Shown here: one piece after another, positions 21,099 to 30,317 of the stretch | Numbering within the stretch: position 1 is the stretch's first letter | Layout of the letters: every line of letters begins with the position of its first letter | NCBI RefSeq assembly: GCF_000039765.1 | Contig: NC_004459.3 | Span: forward strand, 1,860,001 to 1,892,000 | DNA from: Vibrio vulnificus CMCP6 | GTDB taxonomy: Bacteria > Pseudomonadota > Gammaproteobacteria > Enterobacterales > Vibrionaceae | Length of the DNA: 32,000 nucleotides | Direction of reading: 5' to 3' | Position numbers and translations under genes: made by a program | Notes under the pieces: model-generated | Databases searched by the model: none | What the model was told of the DNA's origin: nothing | Seen by the model: the letters and a program-made list of their open reading frames with translations, nothing else

Positions 21099-21830
21099 AT
21101 GAATACCAGTAACAATTCTGAATACGATCGTATCGTCGTGCTCGATACGGAAACCACGGGTATGAACCGTGAAGGTGGCCCACACTATATGGGGCACAGA
21201 ATCATCGAAATCGGGGCGGTGGAGATCATCAACCGCAAGCTGACCGGGCGACATTTCCATGTTTACCTTAAGCCAGACCGTGAAATTCAACCCGATGCGA
21301 TCGATGTTCACGGTATTACCGATCAGTTTCTAGTTGATAAACCGGAGTATCGTCAAGTTCACCAAGAGTTCCTAGAGTTCATTAAAGGGGCTGAGCTGGT
21401 GGCTCATAACGCGCCCTTCGACGTGGGCTTTATGGATTATGAGTTCGGTAAACTCGACGCCGCCATCGGCAAAACCGATGACTACTGCAAGGTGACCGAT
21501 ACGCTGGCGATGGCGAAGAAGATCTTCCCTGGCAAGCGTAACAACCTAGACGTTTTGTGTGAACGCTACGGCATTGATAACTCACACCGAACGCTTCACG
21601 GGGCATTGCTCGATGCGGAGATTCTGGCTGATGTTTACCTGCTGATGACCGGTGGGCAAACCAGTTTGGAGTTCAACGCCAACTCGCAAGAAGGCGGTGG
21701 TGAAGACATTCGCCGAGTGGCGGGGCGAAAATCTCTTAAGGTTTTGCGTGCAACGGCCGATGAATTAGAAGCGCACCAATCTAGATTGGATATTGTAGAA
21801 AAAAGCGGAACTTGCCTCTGGCGTCAATAG
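21099..21830 (+). CDS. dnaQ: DNA polymerase III epsilon subunit (3'-5' proofreading exonuclease, 243 aa)
   Basis: ExoI VLDTETTG, ExoII AHNAPFDVGFM and ExoIII HGALLDAEILADVY. It is divergent from rnhA as in E. coli. Confidence 0.95.
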   Translation: MNTSNNSEYDRIVVLDTETTGMNREGGPHYMGHRIIEIGAVEIINRKLTGRHFHVYLKPDREIQPDAIDVHGITDQFLVDKPEYRQVHQEFLEFIKGAELVAHNAPFDVGFMDYEFGKLDAAIGKTDDYCKVTDTLAMAKKIFPGKRNNLDVLCERYGIDNSHRTLHGALLDAEILADVYLLMTGGQTSLEFNANSQEGGGEDIRRVAGRKSLKVLRATADELEAHQSRLDIVEKSGTCLWRQ

Positions 21831-21838
21831 GAGAATCT

Positions 21839-23089
21839 ATGTTGAGGACATTGTCAGTCGTATTATTGTTATTGGTTAGTTGTGTAAGCCATGCTGCGAC
21901 AGAGTCGACCATGTCCTTGCTGGATAACCGCTTTCGAGTGGATCCAACCATCGATCAAATCACTTTCTTGATTTATCGCGAAAATCCTTCTCAGCCCGTG
22001 GTGCTAGTGCGACCAGATGGTCGAAAATACTACGCCTTCAAAAGCTACCCCAACGTCCGCTGGTATCAAGAGTCAGCCATGGACATTATCTCTATCGACA
22101 ACCCAATGCCGGGCCCTTGGCAAGCCGTGGGAAAAGTGAGCCCCAAAAACAACATTCGGCTGATTTCTCACCTGACGCTTTCAACGGATCTCTTCCCCAG
22201 TCGTTTGTATCATGGCGAAGTGATGAAATTCACCGCAAGGCTCGCATCGGATGATAAGCCGTTAGTCCTGAGAGATTTCCTTGATCGCGTCAATCTAAAA
22301 GTGACTTTCACGAAGTTTGTTGAAAACGAGCAAGATTTAGTAAAAGAAGCGCGTCCAGTTCCCATTGTTATTGGTGATTTTAGCGATGATGGCACGGGCT
22401 TAGATGAACGAGCTGGCGATGGTGTGTTTACTGTGCAGTTGCCTATCGAAGTGGACCCGGGCAAGTATCGGGCGCGTATCACCTCAGGAAATGGCGTGTT
22501 CCTACGAGCCAAAGAACAGGAAGTGCTGGTCTATCCTAGCCCTGTTTCTACCACCTTCATTCAGTCACGTGATGAAGGCAAGCCACACAGTATTGTGGTT
22601 TCAGGCGAGCAAGGCATGGTGCAGCCTGGGTCTTTGGCGGTTCACATTGAGCAAAGTGCTCCGGATGATTTCGTCAATTATGTGCAAGGGCAGGCGGACA
22701 AAGAGAGCTTAAAAGTGTCGATGCTGCTCGATAGTAGTCAGATGATCGGCATTTATGGTTGGAAGGGTGAAGTGTTCGCCACTGACGCCGCAACACAGCG
22801 CCCATTGATGTTCCCCATCTCACAACAAACGTTCAGTGTTGTGAAAGAGGTGGATATTGAAGCCGCGCGCAAAGCCAAAGAAGCCGCGCTTGCAGAACAA
22901 CGCCGCATTGAAGAAGAACAACGACTTTTGGCGCAAAGAGAGGCCGATCGTAAACAAGCCATCATGATGATTGGTATTGGTAACGTGGTAGTCATCTTAC
23001 TCGGGCTGGTGGTGTGGTTCGTCTGGGGCAAGTTGCGAGCAAAACGCCAAGCCATTCCAGAGATGCAATTAGAAGTGCCGAAGAAATAA
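21839..23089 (+). CDS. Conserved exported, C-terminally membrane-anchored protein of unknown function (416 aa; possibly the TIGR03503 family, from memory only)
   Basis: AGGAGA SD 4 nt before ATG 21839. Signal peptide MLRTLSVVLLLLVSCVSHA. Beta-rich body, then a charged coiled coil (EAARKAKEAALAEQRRIEEEQRLLAQREADRKQ) and a TM anchor (AIMMIGIGNVVVILLGLVVWFVW). Confidence 0.6.
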   Translation: MLRTLSVVLLLLVSCVSHAATESTMSLLDNRFRVDPTIDQITFLIYRENPSQPVVLVRPDGRKYYAFKSYPNVRWYQESAMDIISIDNPMPGPWQAVGKVSPKNNIRLISHLTLSTDLFPSRLYHGEVMKFTARLASDDKPLVLRDFLDRVNLKVTFTKFVENEQDLVKEARPVPIVIGDFSDDGTGLDERAGDGVFTVQLPIEVDPGKYRARITSGNGVFLRAKEQEVLVYPSPVSTTFIQSRDEGKPHSIVVSGEQGMVQPGSLAVHIEQSAPDDFVNYVQGQADKESLKVSMLLDSSQMIGIYGWKGEVFATDAATQRPLMFPISQQTFSVVKEVDIEAARKAKEAALAEQRRIEEEQRLLAQREADRKQAIMMIGIGNVVVILLGLVVWFVWGKLRAKRQAIPEMQLEVPKK

Positions 23090-25814: not shown

Positions 25815-26495
25815 TTAACATATCAGATTCCCATCGGCGTCGTATTCAGCGCGAGTGCCCATATCTTCTTGATATTCTTCAATTCGGGTAAAACGACAAT
25901 CAAGAGGTTGGTATTTTTCCATGATTTCTTTAACGGATTTATGTACGACGAGGCAATCCGTAAACTGCAAGTCATCCCAAATCAAGCGTTTTTCCAAGGG
26001 CACGGCAGCGAGTTTTTCTGGTGATAAGACGATTTTTTCGAAGGTGTAGAGCGGAGGCAGGTAGTCGGCAAAGACATCTTTTTCGTACTCGCTCTGGTCA
26101 AAATCAACGAAATCGTAATAGGCATAATCTCGGTCTACAGGATTTCGGAAAAAATTCAGGTAGTGGTAATCATCGTGGTAAGTGTCATCGTCATTGATGA
26201 TAACGGCTCTCAGCCATTGCGCTCCGGTGATATCGATATGGCGCAGTGCCAGATACAGCTCGCGTTTCACCATCATGTTTCTGCCGGACATATGTAAGTT
26301 ACACAACTGGTGGTGAATCCCCTGACTTACATCTTCATCCCTAAAGCCGTTTTCAAAGTAGAACCAGCGGTTGGTGTTTTCTTGAAACTGATTAAACGTA
26401 AGATCAGCTCCTGCATTTTTCTCATGACCAGTCAAAACCATAGCGTGCTCGCCCACGCGCTGGTAAACCACATAATAATCAGAAAACTTATTCAT
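25815..26495 (-). CDS. Putative nuclease-immunity protein, copy 2 (226 aa; acidic; possibly DUF1629/Imm11-like)
   Basis: Last gene of the PAAR/nuclease operon, with an ATGA overlap to copy 1. No signal peptide or TM segment. About 92% identical to copy 1. The family guess rests on size, context and a ...DDLQFTD.LVVHKSVKEIMEKY... block, not on a search. Confidence 0.6.
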   Translation of the reverse strand: MNKFSDYYVVYQRVGEHAMVLTGHEKNAGADLTFNQFQENTNRWFYFENGFRDEDVSQGIHHQLCNLHMSGRNMMVKRELYLALRHIDITGAQWLRAVIINDDDTYHDDYHYLNFFRNPVDRDYAYYDFVDFDQSEYEKDVFADYLPPLYTFEKIVLSPEKLAAVPLEKRLIWDDLQFTDCLVVHKSVKEIMEKYQPLDCRFTRIEEYQEDMGTRAEYDADGNLIC

Positions 26496-27179
26496 ATTAG
26501 ATTCCCATCGGCGTCGTATTCTGCGCGAGTACCCATGTTCTCTTTATGTTCCTCTATCCGAGTAAAACGACAGTCGAGAGGTTGGTATTTTTCCATGATT
26601 TCTTTAACGGATTTATGTACAACAAGTCGGTCAGTAAACTGCAAGTCATCCCAAATTAAGCGTTTTTCCAAGGGCACGGCAGCGAGTTTTTCTGGTGATA
26701 AGACGATTTTTTCGAAGGTGTAGAGCGGGGGCAGGTAATCAGCAAAGACATCTTTCTCGTACTCGCTCTGCTCAAAATCAACGAAATCGTAATAGGCGTA
26801 ATCTCGGTCTACAGGATTTCGAAAAAAATTCAGGTAGTGGTAATCATCGTGGTAAGTGTCATCGTCATTGATGATAACGGCTCTCAGCCATTGCGCTCCG
26901 GCGATTTCGATATGGCGCAGTGCCAGATACAGCTCGCGTTTCACCATCATGTTTCTGCCGGACATATGTAAGTTACACAACTGGTGGTGTATCCCCTGAC
27001 TTACATCTTCATCCCTAAAGCCATTTTCAAAGTAAAACCAGCGGTTGGTGTCTTCCTGGAAGTCATTACCCGTCAGGTCTCGTGGAACATCATTTTCATG
27101 CCCGACTAACACCATGGCGTGCTCGCCTACACGCTGGTAAACTACATAATAATCAGAAAACTTACTCATATCAGATTCC
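25819..27179. repeat. Tandem direct duplication, period exactly 674 bp (2 full units plus a 13-nt third junction copy)
   Basis: Unit A is 25819-26492, unit B is 26493-27166, and a partial third copy is 27167-27179. The junction motif CATATCAGATTCC occurs at 25819 and 27167, and as CATATTAGATTCC at 26493. The units are about 90% identical by hand alignment. Confidence 0.9.
26492..27169 (-). CDS. Putative nuclease-immunity protein, copy 1 (225 aa; acidic)
   Basis: Starts 1 nt after the nuclease stop, with an AAGGA SD 7 nt upstream. By hand count it has about 43 D/E versus about 25 K/R. That is typical of nuclease inhibitors paired with a basic toxin. Cytoplasmic (no signal or TM). Confidence 0.6.
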   Translation of the reverse strand: MSKFSDYYVVYQRVGEHAMVLVGHENDVPRDLTGNDFQEDTNRWFYFENGFRDEDVSQGIHHQLCNLHMSGRNMMVKRELYLALRHIEIAGAQWLRAVIINDDDTYHDDYHYLNFFRNPVDRDYAYYDFVDFEQSEYEKDVFADYLPPLYTFEKIVLSPEKLAAVPLEKRLIWDDLQFTDRLVVHKSVKEIMEKYQPLDCRFTRIEEHKENMGTRAEYDADGNLI

Positions 27180-28028
27180 TTGCTTTAATGTCCATTTATC
27201 ACCTTTGGGCCAGGTGATCACTCGGTTGTTCCAAATCGCATGTTCTTTGCTTAATTCAGGGCGTTTAAAGTTGTACTTTCGGTCGGTTTGGCCAAAATGG
27301 TTGCAGCCAACGGGGCAGCGTTCACTGGTTTCTCGAGCTTTTGTAATGTTGGTTTGGCCTCGGCATCCCACGTATGAAGAAAAATTGTTGGGGATATTGG
27401 TAAGAGCCACTTCACAAGATATGATTTGATCCAATAAACGTTTGCTTATTTTGTTTGTGATATCGTCGATATTAGGTGTTTTATCGCTTGCTTTTGTGTT
27501 AGGGGGACATCGTTTTAAATGTTCTTTGACCTTTTCAAGTTCATTTTTTACGGTGGTGTGATAGGCCTTACTTTCTACGGGCTTGTCTGGGTGTTCGCCT
27601 CGGTGTGCTTGCAAGCCTAAATGGCACGCCCCTGGCAAGGTTGCGGGCAAGCCGACTAAGTTGTCGAGGGTGTCGATGATATATCCAGCGTTGACTAACT
27701 TTTGAGCATTGCGTTTATCCAAATGCGCCCCTTTAGATGAGATTAAGTGATGGGTCTCCATATGAATGCCCAGAAAATAGGGGTGAGGCTCGCCATCCAC
27801 ATACCAGCGATTCGCGATCTGCGAGCGTTTATGCGCGGGGCGCAGCATGGCTTCTGCTTCGCTGGCCAGTTTCCAGTTGTACTTAGACCTGACATTGGCA
27901 ATCCACCGTTGTCGGTAGTCCATTTTTTCTAAGTTGCCCAATGTTTGTGGTGATTCTGAGTCATCCGAGCTTGGGTTGCCTAACGATGGCGAGGGTGAGT
28001 TTGTTCCGCTCGGTTTAATATTACGCAT
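27171..28028 (-). CDS. Putative HNH/EndoVII-fold (AHH-clade, THH variant) nuclease toxin, free-standing (285 aa)
   Basis: Motif string: HMETHHLIS (aa 89-97), GYIIDTLDNLVGLP (115-128), CHLGLQAHRGEHP (135-147) and AYHTTV (155-160). This fits the s-HH / N..LP / H....H.G.H..Y pattern of AHH-type His-Me finger toxins. Net basic. GGGAG SD 8 nt upstream of the ATG. Followed by acidic immunity-like genes. Confidence 0.7.
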   Translation of the reverse strand: MRNIKPSGTNSPSPSLGNPSSDDSESPQTLGNLEKMDYRQRWIANVRSKYNWKLASEAEAMLRPAHKRSQIANRWYVDGEPHPYFLGIHMETHHLISSKGAHLDKRNAQKLVNAGYIIDTLDNLVGLPATLPGACHLGLQAHRGEHPDKPVESKAYHTTVKNELEKVKEHLKRCPPNTKASDKTPNIDDITNKISKRLLDQIISCEVALTNIPNNFSSYVGCRGQTNITKARETSERCPVGCNHFGQTDRKYNFKRPELSKEHAIWNNRVITWPKGDKWTLKQGI

Positions 28029-30045
28029 AATTTAATCTCCCGGCTCTGACGGGCTTAGTATCGTGGCCTGTTTTTCCGCACACGCGACATCTTGGTGGTT
28101 TGTCATCACGTTTTGGCGTCGAAACGCTCTTTTTCACCGTTCGATTGGTCCAACCCGTGAATGTCGTTGATAGTGCTTTGGATCTTGCAATCGCGATTTT
28201 TTTCAGTTTTTCGAACAGTGCAAGAAGTTGCTCAAATGCACTCAAAACTGCGTTAAGTCCACTTCGCATGTTTTGTACCGCTTTGTTGTGGCTTACTGCC
28301 TTGGCAAACATATTTGAGTATTTCGCTACTTTTTGAGACGTTGCTGCGGCTTTGACGGCGGCTCCTGCTCCGACCGAGATCAGACCAAGTAGCAATACCA
28401 ACAAAACTTCGAGAGCGATGTAAATGCCAGCTTTTCCTAGACAGTAGGTATAAAAATTAGGTGGGATCTCTTCAAAAATACGCATGATGTAGTCGAGGTA
28501 AAGCAAGACACTGTCATCTTCTTCTAACAACGCAATGAACAAGTGGAAATCTGAACTGTTACGTAACTTTTGAGCTAAGTCTGGATCAATTTCGTCTAGT
28601 GTTGACTCTATAAATCGTTGGATTTCTTTCACTTTTCGTTGTCTGATATGGCCAATTAATGCAAATATCTCCTCTCTGTATTTTACGTAAACACTTAACT
28701 CTTCAGCGGAGTTGACGGCTTTGTTGTAAATATCGAGTGGGCTATGTTCAGCAAAGAAAATTTCTATCGAGTCAGGTACTAGTGGCTCAACAACAACATC
28801 ATAAGCAATGCCAGAATAAAGCTTGGTCATTTCTGTTACACCAATGGCGAAGACATGCGAGTCAGCTTGTAGTGTCTCCAGCCAGTTACTCTCTATCGCC
28901 TTACCGCGCTCATCATATTTTATTGCGCGGATTCCATTGATGATGTTTGTACGAGCCTGAATAAATCGGTGGTCAATTTTATTCTGTATGCTTGATGCAT
29001 ATTCGCCTAATGAATCCCAACCGCGTGACAACCCTTCGGATAAGGTATCGCCAAGTTCTCCCCAAAGCTCTGGTGTAAACAAATCCAGTTGATCAGAGCT
29101 CCATGCAACAGCACCATCGTAAACGCCGTCGGCAAGAGTTAGCCATCCTCGTTCTGCCCATGCTTCATTGAATGGTTTCATGCTGTCTGAGACCGATGTA
29201 AAGATACTATCGAGTTCTTTGTGTAACTCATCAGTTAACTGTTTTATTTCACTAGCAGAACCACTCTTCCCAAGCACATCAACAAGAACCTTGGTTTGTT
29301 CGAGAGGAATATTTTCAATAACGTGGACACCGGGTTCAAATTGTTCAGATTGTTTTGCTTCTTGTACTTCGTAATGGTCAGAGTTGCGTTTTGTGGTTCC
29401 CTTCGTGTGCTTTGTTGAAGCCTCTACTTCGTGAACGAGTTTCTGAGAGCCATCGCTGGACTCAGTGCTAATGACCGAGCTATAAAACGGAATCGCGGTA
29501 TTCCAAAGATCATCATATTCCAACCGGATCTTGACCCAACTGAACTCTTCTTTCTCTGCTTCTGTTGCAAAGCTTTCGCCGTCTGTTCTAGCCGTTATAT
29601 CTTCATGCTGTTGGAATTGATCAGATAGGGAAGATTGCAATAATGGTTGATGGCTTTGTGATGTAGCCAGCGAGCTTGCGCTCTCTGCGGTACTTTCTTT
29701 AGCAGATGTGGAAGAGCTTTTAGGCGCAGGAGAGGGTTGGACGACAATCCCTGCATCTCCGATAAGCACTGTTCCTGCACCGCTAATTATAACCCCGCCA
29801 TGGGATGAACTATCGCCCAGTCTTGCAGCGGGTTTACCGTTAATAAAAACTGACGATGATCCACCAGATATACTATCTGCTGGGCCTACACATACGATTG
29901 AATCGCCTTCACGCGCAGCTGGAAGCCCCTCAATGAACACATTTGGAGAGCCGTTAACGATTGGTCCCCCCACATGGGGCACTTTACCCGTCTTTTTAGG
30001 GCAGACGTGAAAATCGGAGATGCGTGCCGCTGGCTTTTTACTCAA
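28021..30045 (-). CDS. PAAR domain-containing protein with a long uncharacterised C-terminal extension (674 aa, TTG start); putative T6SS spike-tip carrier or effector
   Basis: Residues 5-96 carry three PAAR-type repeats (KPAARISDFHVCP...PHVGGPIV; GLPAAREGDSIVCVGP; GKPAARLGDSSSHGG), as in Rhs-type PAAR domains. An S/T/A/P-rich linker follows (about aa 101-165), then about 370 aa with no motif I recognise. One hydrophobic helix spans about aa 539-567, followed by a basic tail with CRVCGKTGH. TTG is the only possible start, because an in-frame stop lies 3 codons upstream. Confidence 0.85.
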   Translation of the reverse strand: MSKKPAARISDFHVCPKKTGKVPHVGGPIVNGSPNVFIEGLPAAREGDSIVCVGPADSISGGSSSVFINGKPAARLGDSSSHGGVIISGAGTVLIGDAGIVVQPSPAPKSSSTSAKESTAESASSLATSQSHQPLLQSSLSDQFQQHEDITARTDGESFATEAEKEEFSWVKIRLEYDDLWNTAIPFYSSVISTESSDGSQKLVHEVEASTKHTKGTTKRNSDHYEVQEAKQSEQFEPGVHVIENIPLEQTKVLVDVLGKSGSASEIKQLTDELHKELDSIFTSVSDSMKPFNEAWAERGWLTLADGVYDGAVAWSSDQLDLFTPELWGELGDTLSEGLSRGWDSLGEYASSIQNKIDHRFIQARTNIINGIRAIKYDERGKAIESNWLETLQADSHVFAIGVTEMTKLYSGIAYDVVVEPLVPDSIEIFFAEHSPLDIYNKAVNSAEELSVYVKYREEIFALIGHIRQRKVKEIQRFIESTLDEIDPDLAQKLRNSSDFHLFIALLEEDDSVLLYLDYIMRIFEEIPPNFYTYCLGKAGIYIALEVLLVLLLGLISVGAGAAVKAAATSQKVAKYSNMFAKAVSHNKAVQNMRSGLNAVLSAFEQLLALFEKLKKIAIARSKALSTTFTGWTNRTVKKSVSTPKRDDKPPRCRVCGKTGHDTKPVRAGRLNYA

Positions 30046-30079: not shown

Positions 30080-30109
30080 ATTATCAAGACCAAAGCAGTG
30101 AAGTAGCAA
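30080..30109 (-). promoter_or_regulatory. Candidate sigma70 promoter for the PAAR operon
   Basis: On the minus strand: TTGCTA (30109-30104), an 18-nt spacer, then GATAAT (30085-30080), about 35 nt upstream of the TTG start. Sequence match only, and several other weak matches exist in the AT-rich leader. Confidence 0.3.
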
Positions 30110-30267: not shown

Positions 30268-30291
30268 AAAAAAACGGGAGCTCGGCTCCCG
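30268..30291 (-). terminator. Rho-independent terminator of fadE
   Basis: The minus strand reads CGGGAGC-CGA-GCTCCCG followed by TTTTTTT (A-run 30268-30274 on the plus strand), 27 nt after the fadE stop. Confidence 0.85.
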
Positions 30292-30317
30292 TTGTACTTG
30301 TGATACTTTTGTGGTGA

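Follow-up and report, generated by a model that had tools for sequence, protein, structure and literature searches.

A 32,000-nucleotide stretch of the Vibrio vulnificus CMCP6 genome (contig NC_004459.3, positions 1,860,001 to 1,892,000; hereafter the window) encodes a 674-residue PAAR protein, the carrier, followed by genes for a 285-residue AHH-family nuclease and two tandem immunity-like proteins. We propose that these genes probably specify one type VI secretion system (T6SS) delivery unit, in which a PAAR tip bears a dedicated carrier (co-effector) module that delivers the separate AHH DNase, with the immunity copies encoded alongside. At the level of sequence and predicted fold, our comparison establishes the pairing of the genes, their cassette structure, the association of the module with T6SS and the module's lack of any known toxin fold. 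The open reading frames (ORFs) and parts on which this proposal draws are as follows.

28021..30045, minus strand: carrier ORF, 674 residues, TTG start (ORF list, start context read).
29749..30045, minus strand: PAAR domain, residues 1-99, for spike-tip attachment (PF05488 and NCBIfam T6SS_PAAR_dom).
29551..29748, minus strand: flexible linker, residues 100-165, 61% S/T/A/P/Q.
29275..29553, minus strand: beta-sandwich, putative connector, residues 165-257, with the motif WVKIRLEYDDLWNTAIPFY (strands in an AlphaFold2 (AF2) model, predicted local distance difference test (pLDDT) ~69-95).
28441..29262, minus strand: acidic W-rich helical core, residues 262-535 (family alignments and AF2).
28348..28440, minus strand: single very hydrophobic helix, residues 536-566, containing Glu546 and ending G-x-G-x-A-A-[RK] (Kyte-Doolittle, AF2).
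28111..28347, minus strand: basic helical region, residues 567-645 (charge; AF2 helices H396-459 and then a beta-hairpin, pLDDT 68-96).
28024..28110, minus strand: C-terminal tail, residues 646-674, proposed nuclease-docking element (conservation).
27171..28028, minus strand: putative cargo toxin, an AHH (here THH) His-Me-finger nuclease, 285 residues (PF14412 match).
26492..27169, minus strand: predicted immunity protein copy 1, 225 residues, soluble and acidic (weak Imm11 match, E 0.034).
25815..26495, minus strand: predicted immunity protein copy 2, 226 residues, tandem paralogue of copy 1.

Carrier and nuclease genes predict one another in both directions, in locus counts that come from pattern-seeded scans, not exhaustive censuses. 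With the module as seed we fetched 44 genome loci, and at every readable one the module ends at its conserved position and is followed, at a gap of -8 to +55 nucleotides, by an ORF of 200-280 residues. This next gene encodes a homologue of the 285-residue AHH protein of the window in 41 of 43 genome loci (phmmer E 5e-15 to 1e-36), and the gene after the nuclease encodes a homologue of the 225-residue protein in 40 of 40, often in tandem copies. For the reverse test, a narrow nuclease alignment served as seed on metagenome contigs; among 43 loci with usable upstream sequence, the module stands immediately upstream in 40 (as a separate ORF in 39 and fused in 1). One exception that we inspected (L071, 3980-8237) is an orphan AHH-immunity pair with no module upstream, directly followed by a 972-residue VgrG in which the module's beta-domain motif, WVQLAASYDDAWNTPWP, is found in the final ~40 residues, before the stop. 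Pairwise distances of the carrier C-terminal domain correlate with those of the nuclease (r=0.80, Mantel p<=0.0005) and those of the toxin with those of the immunity protein (r=0.90), which fits a cassette inherited as one unit.

Partners that interact physically usually betray themselves in genomes by so-called 'Rosetta-stone' fusions. The module, a C-x2-C-x4-H tail and an AHH domain occur in one chain in P0049, P0096, P0068 and L055, the first of these in three independent assemblies, 3' of VgrG and 5' of a 210-residue ORF in the immunity position. Members without the Cys/His tail are fused to other toxins instead: P0084 joins the module to Ntox15, with a Tdi1-type immunity gene downstream, and P0062, a DUF4150-module protein, joins it to a deaminase-like HAE...PGMCSGC motif (read by eye), with its own small downstream ORF. 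Lying 3' of P0062 (L054, 7863-9507) are a transposase fragment, a 126-residue AHH fragment and an unannotated 198-residue ORF, of which the last two look like a displaced or orphaned remnant of the original toxin-immunity pair.

These patterns make it quite likely that the carrier binds the nuclease physically through its tail, which reads KRDDKPPR-C653-RV-C656-GKTG-H661-DTKPVRA-G669-RLN-Y673-A before the stop. The tail is the likely docking site because it is found together with the AHH partner and disappears where the module is fused to other toxins, because it is the fusion point in single-chain forms, and because its last ten residues are modelled with low confidence when the carrier is taken alone (pLDDT 46, suggesting disorder, against ~77-80 for the Cys/His knuckle). 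As the knuckle offers three ligands and the nuclease has C135/C174/C222/C238/H244 of its own, a zinc site shared between carrier and nuclease is possible; that zinc takes part in the carrier-nuclease unit at all is a tentative suggestion. The carrier end G-x-[ILV]-x-Y (28024-28045) also resembles a nuclease N-terminal motif, G-[NT]-[ILV]-x-K-x3-Y (27921-27944), with GRLNY/GNLEKMDY, GTINY/GNIKKGTKY and GEIKY/GTIEKKGY as examples of such end/start pairs from the window and L004, L006 and L016. Single-chain fusions hold one copy of the G-x-[ILV]-x-Y-like motif, and the duplication may have arisen at the junction when the gene split, or the two motifs may be strands that match each other.

The 285-residue protein belongs to the AHH family, matching PF14412 over residues 89-194 (E 1e-12, with a score of 48.4 where the cutoff is 22.3). 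Neither H93 nor H94 varies among 43 homologues; the invariant residues of the subfamily are H82, P83, H93, H94, C135, H142, H146, H157, C174, C222 and C238, with H244 at ~98%. For the 225- and 226-residue proteins, Imm11 (PF07791) scores reach 13.9 and 15.6, the cutoff being 22.1, and both where they lie and how they co-vary with the toxin would suit immunity proteins. The two copies are 92% identical, with about half of their 17 differences within residues 22-40, and tandem arrays of 2-3 copies recur at many other loci, a pattern that suggests diversification or accumulation of immunity genes.

We then asked what the extension of the carrier is. Its N terminus is a PAAR spike-tip domain by both libraries searched (PF05488, PAAR_motif, residues 19-88, E 4.9e-24, with a score of 84.8 where the cutoff is 27; T6SS_PAAR_dom, E 2.5e-15), and no other Pfam or NCBIfam family matches the carrier at E<=0.01. 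Neither the protein alone nor a profile retrieved a relative from PDB sequences (best E 0.19 and 0.065, coiled-coil noise), and when the model was compared with PDB by Foldseek no global match reached significance (best E 0.069, template modelling score (TM) <=0.17), the sole local match being that of the beta-sandwich to the immunoglobulin-like adhesin 4gpv (probability 0.99). A preliminary description, made by reading the sequence, had divided the extension into a linker, a W/D/E-rich region, a hydrophobic segment and a basic Cys/His tail, had found no toxin domain in it and had placed the nuclease in a separate downstream ORF. All four parts were recovered where that description had put them, the nuclease is indeed a separate gene, and the profile and structural searches, which could have exposed a known toxin, agree by sequence (Pfam, NCBIfam, PDB) and by fold (Foldseek) that the extension holds none.

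Membership of described effector classes was considered in turn. A specialized PAAR effector with a covalent toxin domain was rejected, there being no toxin family or PDB relative in the extension, as was the RIX class, the N terminus being a PAAR domain with no arginine-rich RIX domain present. IMT/Pyocin_S (PF06958) was rejected for want of a Pfam match in the carrier or the 285-residue protein. A prePAAR/Eag-dependent effector was rejected because the only hydrophobic helix lies C-terminal to PAAR, where that class has transmembrane helices N-terminal to it, and no Eag (DUF1795) chaperone gene is adjacent, and a Tme effector because the next gene encodes an AHH nuclease and the immunity homologues are soluble. 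WHIX membership was discarded because of domain content or the type of immunity. As for MIX, PAAR was the only match in Pfam and NCBIfam at E<=1, the presence of a MIX model in these libraries being unconfirmed.

The extension instead defines a widespread, conserved and unannotated family of carrier modules, as judged from an exhaustive HMMER search across 1.84 billion representatives of 50% identity clusters. This search recovered 86 module relatives at E<=1e-3, of which 68 also passed E<=1e-10, from beta- and gammaproteobacteria; word-indexed protein searches gave 3, 10 and 2 matches, close relatives only, and the family emerged from the exhaustive search alone. No Pfam family covers the module in any of 85 members scanned, and no NCBIfam model does. 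A set of its proteins, in Vibrio, Pseudoalteromonas, Chromobacterium, Duganella, Janthinobacterium and other genera, is known under the labels 'PAAR domain-containing' or hypothetical.

Conservation is best over about residues 440-674, which are C-terminal in nearly every match, and longer members align from about residue 165. Relatives only 25-35% identical keep the W-rich block, PPNFY, the hydrophobic helix and the C-x2-C-x4-H tail, so these features are not chance. Near-invariant across the family are M289, W296, W328, D344, W388 and P528-Y532. The hallmarks comprise the W-rich block M..F...W...G...G...W..D...LF..E.W..LG; IDP.LA; PPNFY.Y..GK.G.Y; a hydrophobic helix with an invariant Glu, the helix ending G.G.AA[RK]; a helical basic stretch; and the tail [KR]R[DN]..-C-x2-C-x4-H-x-T-P-x4-G-x-[VIL]-x-Y-x-stop, in which family alignments show C, C and H to be invariant and T, P, G and Y to be at least 90% conserved. 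The protein ends 12-15 residues past the conserved His in ~50 representatives (<50% mutual identity) and at ~40 genome loci.

Within the window protein, the core (AWAERGW...ELWGELGD block, variable loop at residues 368-427, PPNFY at residues 528-532, nucleotides 28450-28464) contributes to a region, residues 166-535, with a net charge of -32 and 8 Trp, whereas residues 567-674, which contain CRVCGKTGH, carry +17. The linker differs in length and sequence even in the 77%-identical P0003. A V. vulnificus relative of 632 residues (P0002) has a clean in-frame deletion of 42 residues, at about residues 366-407 (window 28825-28950), which largely coincides with the lowest-confidence AF2 stretch (extension residues 204-263); a segment falling there looks dispensable.

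The module appears behind several delivery domains, as expected of a T6SS element with interchangeable attachment. Its N-terminal contexts are PAAR (as in the window), the PAAR-like DUF4150 (8 representatives, one of them, L017, directly after TssK and TssL inside a T6SS cluster), VgrG (L038, L040) and Rhs (P0069); it also occurs as a stand-alone protein of ~400 residues, directly 3' of a VgrG gene with a DUF2345 C terminus (L006, L012, L027, L029). Stand-alone forms begin at about residue 262 of the window protein. In the examples that we read, the beta-sandwich is present behind PAAR, DUF4150 and Rhs and in some members with uncharacterized N termini and is missing from the stand-alone members, and we therefore read it as a connector. 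The locus thus shows the pattern of a carrier/cargo cassette: a non-toxic extension, then cargo and immunity genes, portable between delivery domains.

How the module might act is suggested by its predicted structure. An AF2 model of residues 165-674, built from a 47-sequence alignment (pLDDT 77.7, predicted template modelling score (pTM) 0.80), shows the beta-sandwich (strands E4-13 to E86-93; residues 165-257) followed by an all-helical bundle that encloses the hydrophobic helix (H365-392 in the model, pLDDT 75-93). In the window protein the 19-residue Kyte-Doolittle mean peaks at 2.53 at residues 540-541, and the only other segment above 1.4 falls within the PAAR domain. Across 45 representatives the helix averages 2.21 (minimum 1.68) and is flanked by asymmetric charge, with family means of -18.6 on its N side and +15 on its C side; Glu546 (nucleotides 28408-28410), in mid-helix, is invariant across aligned family members (alignments A3, A5, A7). 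The nucleases have a mean net charge of +6.4, and that of the window +12.

On the reading that we favour, the carrier would sit on the VgrG tip through its PAAR domain, its C-terminal tail (C-x2-C-x4-H plus T-P-x4-G-x-[VIL]-x-Y) would hold the separately translated nuclease non-covalently, and the two would be fired together. Once in the target periplasm, the very hydrophobic helix might embed itself in the inner membrane, and its basic tail, along with the basic nuclease cargo, might be carried toward the cytoplasm, where the DNase would act. Where they can be identified, the toxins fused to or neighbouring the module act on nucleic acids and must therefore reach the cytoplasm, and the most economical reading, we infer, is that the module helps a cytoplasm-acting toxin across the inner membrane. 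The helix may accordingly point to membrane translocation over simple tethering, although its service in inner-membrane translocation is put forward here only tentatively. Somewhat doubtful is the more elaborate proposal of an inner-membrane translocation device for T6SS nucleases, in which a shielded helix inserts, the membrane potential draws the tail, and a clasped DNase is released without proteolysis; the clasp would consist of the C-x2-C-x4-H knuckle and terminal strand, possibly with one zinc ion in common.

Several observations weigh against the favoured reading or parts of it. The membrane prediction comes from a single hydropathy scale, and the hydrophobic helix could be the mere buried core of a soluble bundle; the Foldseek comparison with PDB turned up nothing that resembles known translocation or pore-forming domains; and T6SS might place some cargo straight into the cytoplasm, making a translocation module unnecessary. 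On the side of binding, an AF2 model of a carrier-nuclease pseudo-fusion reached a pLDDT of 58, with the nuclease half, where the alignment is too shallow, below 50, and shared ancestry or co-inheritance alone could give the distance correlation. One relative, P0052, lacks the C-x2-C-x4-H knuckle yet keeps a ...KKGTIEYV end and still precedes an AHH gene, so the knuckle is not strictly required for pairing and the terminal strand may matter more.

The strongest alternative draws on the same points: the extension would be a passive platform or stabilizer, the helix the core of a soluble bundle, and the nuclease would enter the cytoplasm by other means. The pairing evidence fits it equally, AF2 packs the helix into a confident bundle with no fold likeness to pore-forming or translocation domains, and known RIX and PAAR platforms need no membrane element (PMC10435454). 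We nevertheless consider it unlikely, as ~410 conserved residues far exceed known platforms (the described RIX adaptor truncations are ~134 residues; PMC10435454), core helices of soluble proteins seldom hold a hydropathy of 2.2-2.5 over ~30 residues, the invariant Glu and the acidic-N/basic-C asymmetry are conserved in 45 representatives, and the identifiable toxins, acting on nucleic acids, would still have to gain the cytoplasm.

Improbable, in our view, is that the extension acts beside the nuclease as a second toxin, one that disrupts membranes or forms pores, an idea to which lend some weight the one conserved transmembrane-like helix near the C terminus, which recalls Tme effectors (PMC7046647), and the existence of effectors with two toxic domains, such as WHIX effectors. 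Only a soluble immunity homologue (maximum Kyte-Doolittle below ~1.75) is conserved downstream of the nuclease, with no conserved membrane-protein gene after it in 40 loci, which disfavours a membrane toxin; in addition, various toxins are fused C-terminal to the module, each accompanied by one immunity gene, and the module matches no toxin family or fold. The preliminary description had raised both this possibility and that of a binary carrier and cargo, arguing against the former from the lack of a membrane-type immunity gene. That argument not only holds but generalizes across the 40 loci, and the carrier-plus-cargo hypothesis gains strong support from comparative genomics, through the two-way pairing, the fusions, the correlated distances and the portability of the cassette.

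That the 674- and 285-residue ORFs are one PAAR-AHH gene, split by a frameshift or joined by programmed frameshifting, might be read from their 8-nucleotide overlap in different frames, from the single-chain fusions at other loci and from the single-chain nature of the characterized T6SS AHH effectors VP1415 and V2a, but this frameshift or pseudogene reading is effectively refuted and very improbable, because the stop keeps an identical position in ~50 distant representatives and ~80 loci while the intergenic gaps vary (-8 to +55 nucleotides, various frames, most toxin genes starting past the carrier stop), and because the aligned full-length homologues in the V. vulnificus protein cluster of 68 member sequences all stop at the same residue.

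In the window the four genes form an island in the order carrier, AHH nuclease, immunity copy 1 and immunity copy 2, and the junction between the carrier stop and the nuclease ATG reads ATGCGTAA, the 8 nucleotides that the two ORFs share. The island is flanked by kefB and fadE amid housekeeping genes (rseP, bamA, lpx genes, dnaE, accA, tilS), and the window contains no T6SS structural genes near it. Its GC content (25815-30045) is 0.42-0.47, against mostly 0.45-0.51 across the window; the ORF list shows no integrase or tRNA near it (no dedicated tRNA scan was run) and no ORF between fadE and the PAAR gene. The fadE terminator (30273-30293) is a hairpin of 9 pairs with a T-run, and downstream of it lies one further candidate feature.

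30080..30109, minus strand: promoter-like site 5' of the four-gene operon (consensus scan only, 9/12 matches, weak evidence).

Further V. vulnificus strains share the island, one of them (L002) with three immunity copies, and P0003, from another assembly and 77% identical overall, likewise has the 8-nucleotide overlap and the AHH gene. A 97%-identical V. vulnificus protein is annotated merely as 'PAAR domain-containing protein'. Elsewhere in the window (21812-23089), a 425-residue ORF without a Pfam match lies between an RNase T-like gene and a flavodoxin-like/kefB pair, and its counterpart in strain L002 is likewise without a Pfam match.

How T6SS nucleases pass the target inner membrane is largely open (PMC9040868, PMC10240207), and a two-polypeptide unit would offer a tractable system: with the toxin on one chain and the putative translocation or carrier part on another, mutations could be placed separately in the helix, its invariant Glu, the asymmetric charges and the Cys/His tail while the nuclease stays intact. 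As a marker for T6SS effector cassettes the family would be comparable to MIX, FIX, RIX and WHIX, and it would explain proteins now labelled 'PAAR domain-containing' or hypothetical across several genera; in V. vulnificus it would define an orphan antibacterial cassette outside T6SS clusters.

Secreted carriers with a separately encoded cargo are already known, in the form of MIX co-effectors and RIX adaptors or platforms. RIX adaptors and PAAR- or VgrG-fused loading platforms with downstream cargo and immunity genes have been documented (Kanarek et al. 2023, PMC10435454), and they share with the window locus a secreted carrier, separate cargo and immunity, as well as a cassette found on varied T6SS delivery domains, including PAAR. 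RIX platforms, however, use a small TTR domain that completes a barrel, whereas the present module has no RIX domain, forms a ~410-residue helical platform with a transmembrane-like helix and a Cys/His tail, and is tied to one AHH subfamily in two proteobacterial classes. The VP1388/VP1390 binary module of a MIX co-effector and an effector (Dar et al. 2021, PMC8728615) is similar in pairing a non-toxic secreted partner with a toxin in one operon, delivered together, as the carrier and nuclease here probably are. Its effector targets the periplasm, whereas that of the window is a predicted DNase, and its co-effector has a MIX domain, whereas none was detected in the window carrier with Pfam and NCBIfam, in which a MIX model has not been confirmed.

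Among single-chain T6SS AHH effectors (V. parahaemolyticus VP1415, PAAR-AHH; Agrobacterium tumefaciens V2a, DUF4150-AHH; Txe2; Le1893), VP1415 and V2a resemble the window in their PAAR or PAAR-like tip, AHH DNase and downstream immunity gene, but their toxin is covalently fused, whereas the window nuclease is a separate polypeptide. VP1415 would lack the module, since no PAAR and AHH combination occurs among the 86 module relatives. Tme membrane-disrupting effectors, followed by immunity proteins mostly of 3-6 transmembrane helices (Fridman et al. 2020, PMC7046647), likewise have a C-terminal domain for which a single transmembrane helix is predicted and which different members attach to PAAR, MIX or VgrG, but neighbour multi-helix membrane immunity proteins, whereas in the window the next gene encodes a nuclease and the immunity proteins are soluble; the Tme DxxK motif was not seen in the window module, although no formal search was made for it.

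Devices proposed for the inner-membrane passage of nucleases are the prePAAR transmembrane domains, the Tde1 glycine zipper (PMC10240207) and IMT/Pyocin_S (PMC9040868). Each, like the window module, places a conserved hydrophobic or membrane-active element N-terminal to or alongside a cytoplasm-acting, nuclease-linked toxin; unlike them, the window protein has its transmembrane-like helix C-terminal to PAAR in a large bundle, has no adjacent Eag gene and has a separate toxin. We infer that the module is functionally analogous to these devices and a member of none. In the literature that we searched, only single-chain AHH effectors appear, with neither a split AHH unit nor this module described. 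What the window would add to the known carriers is a large, unannotated carrier family apparently dedicated to nucleases and equipped with a membrane-type helix.

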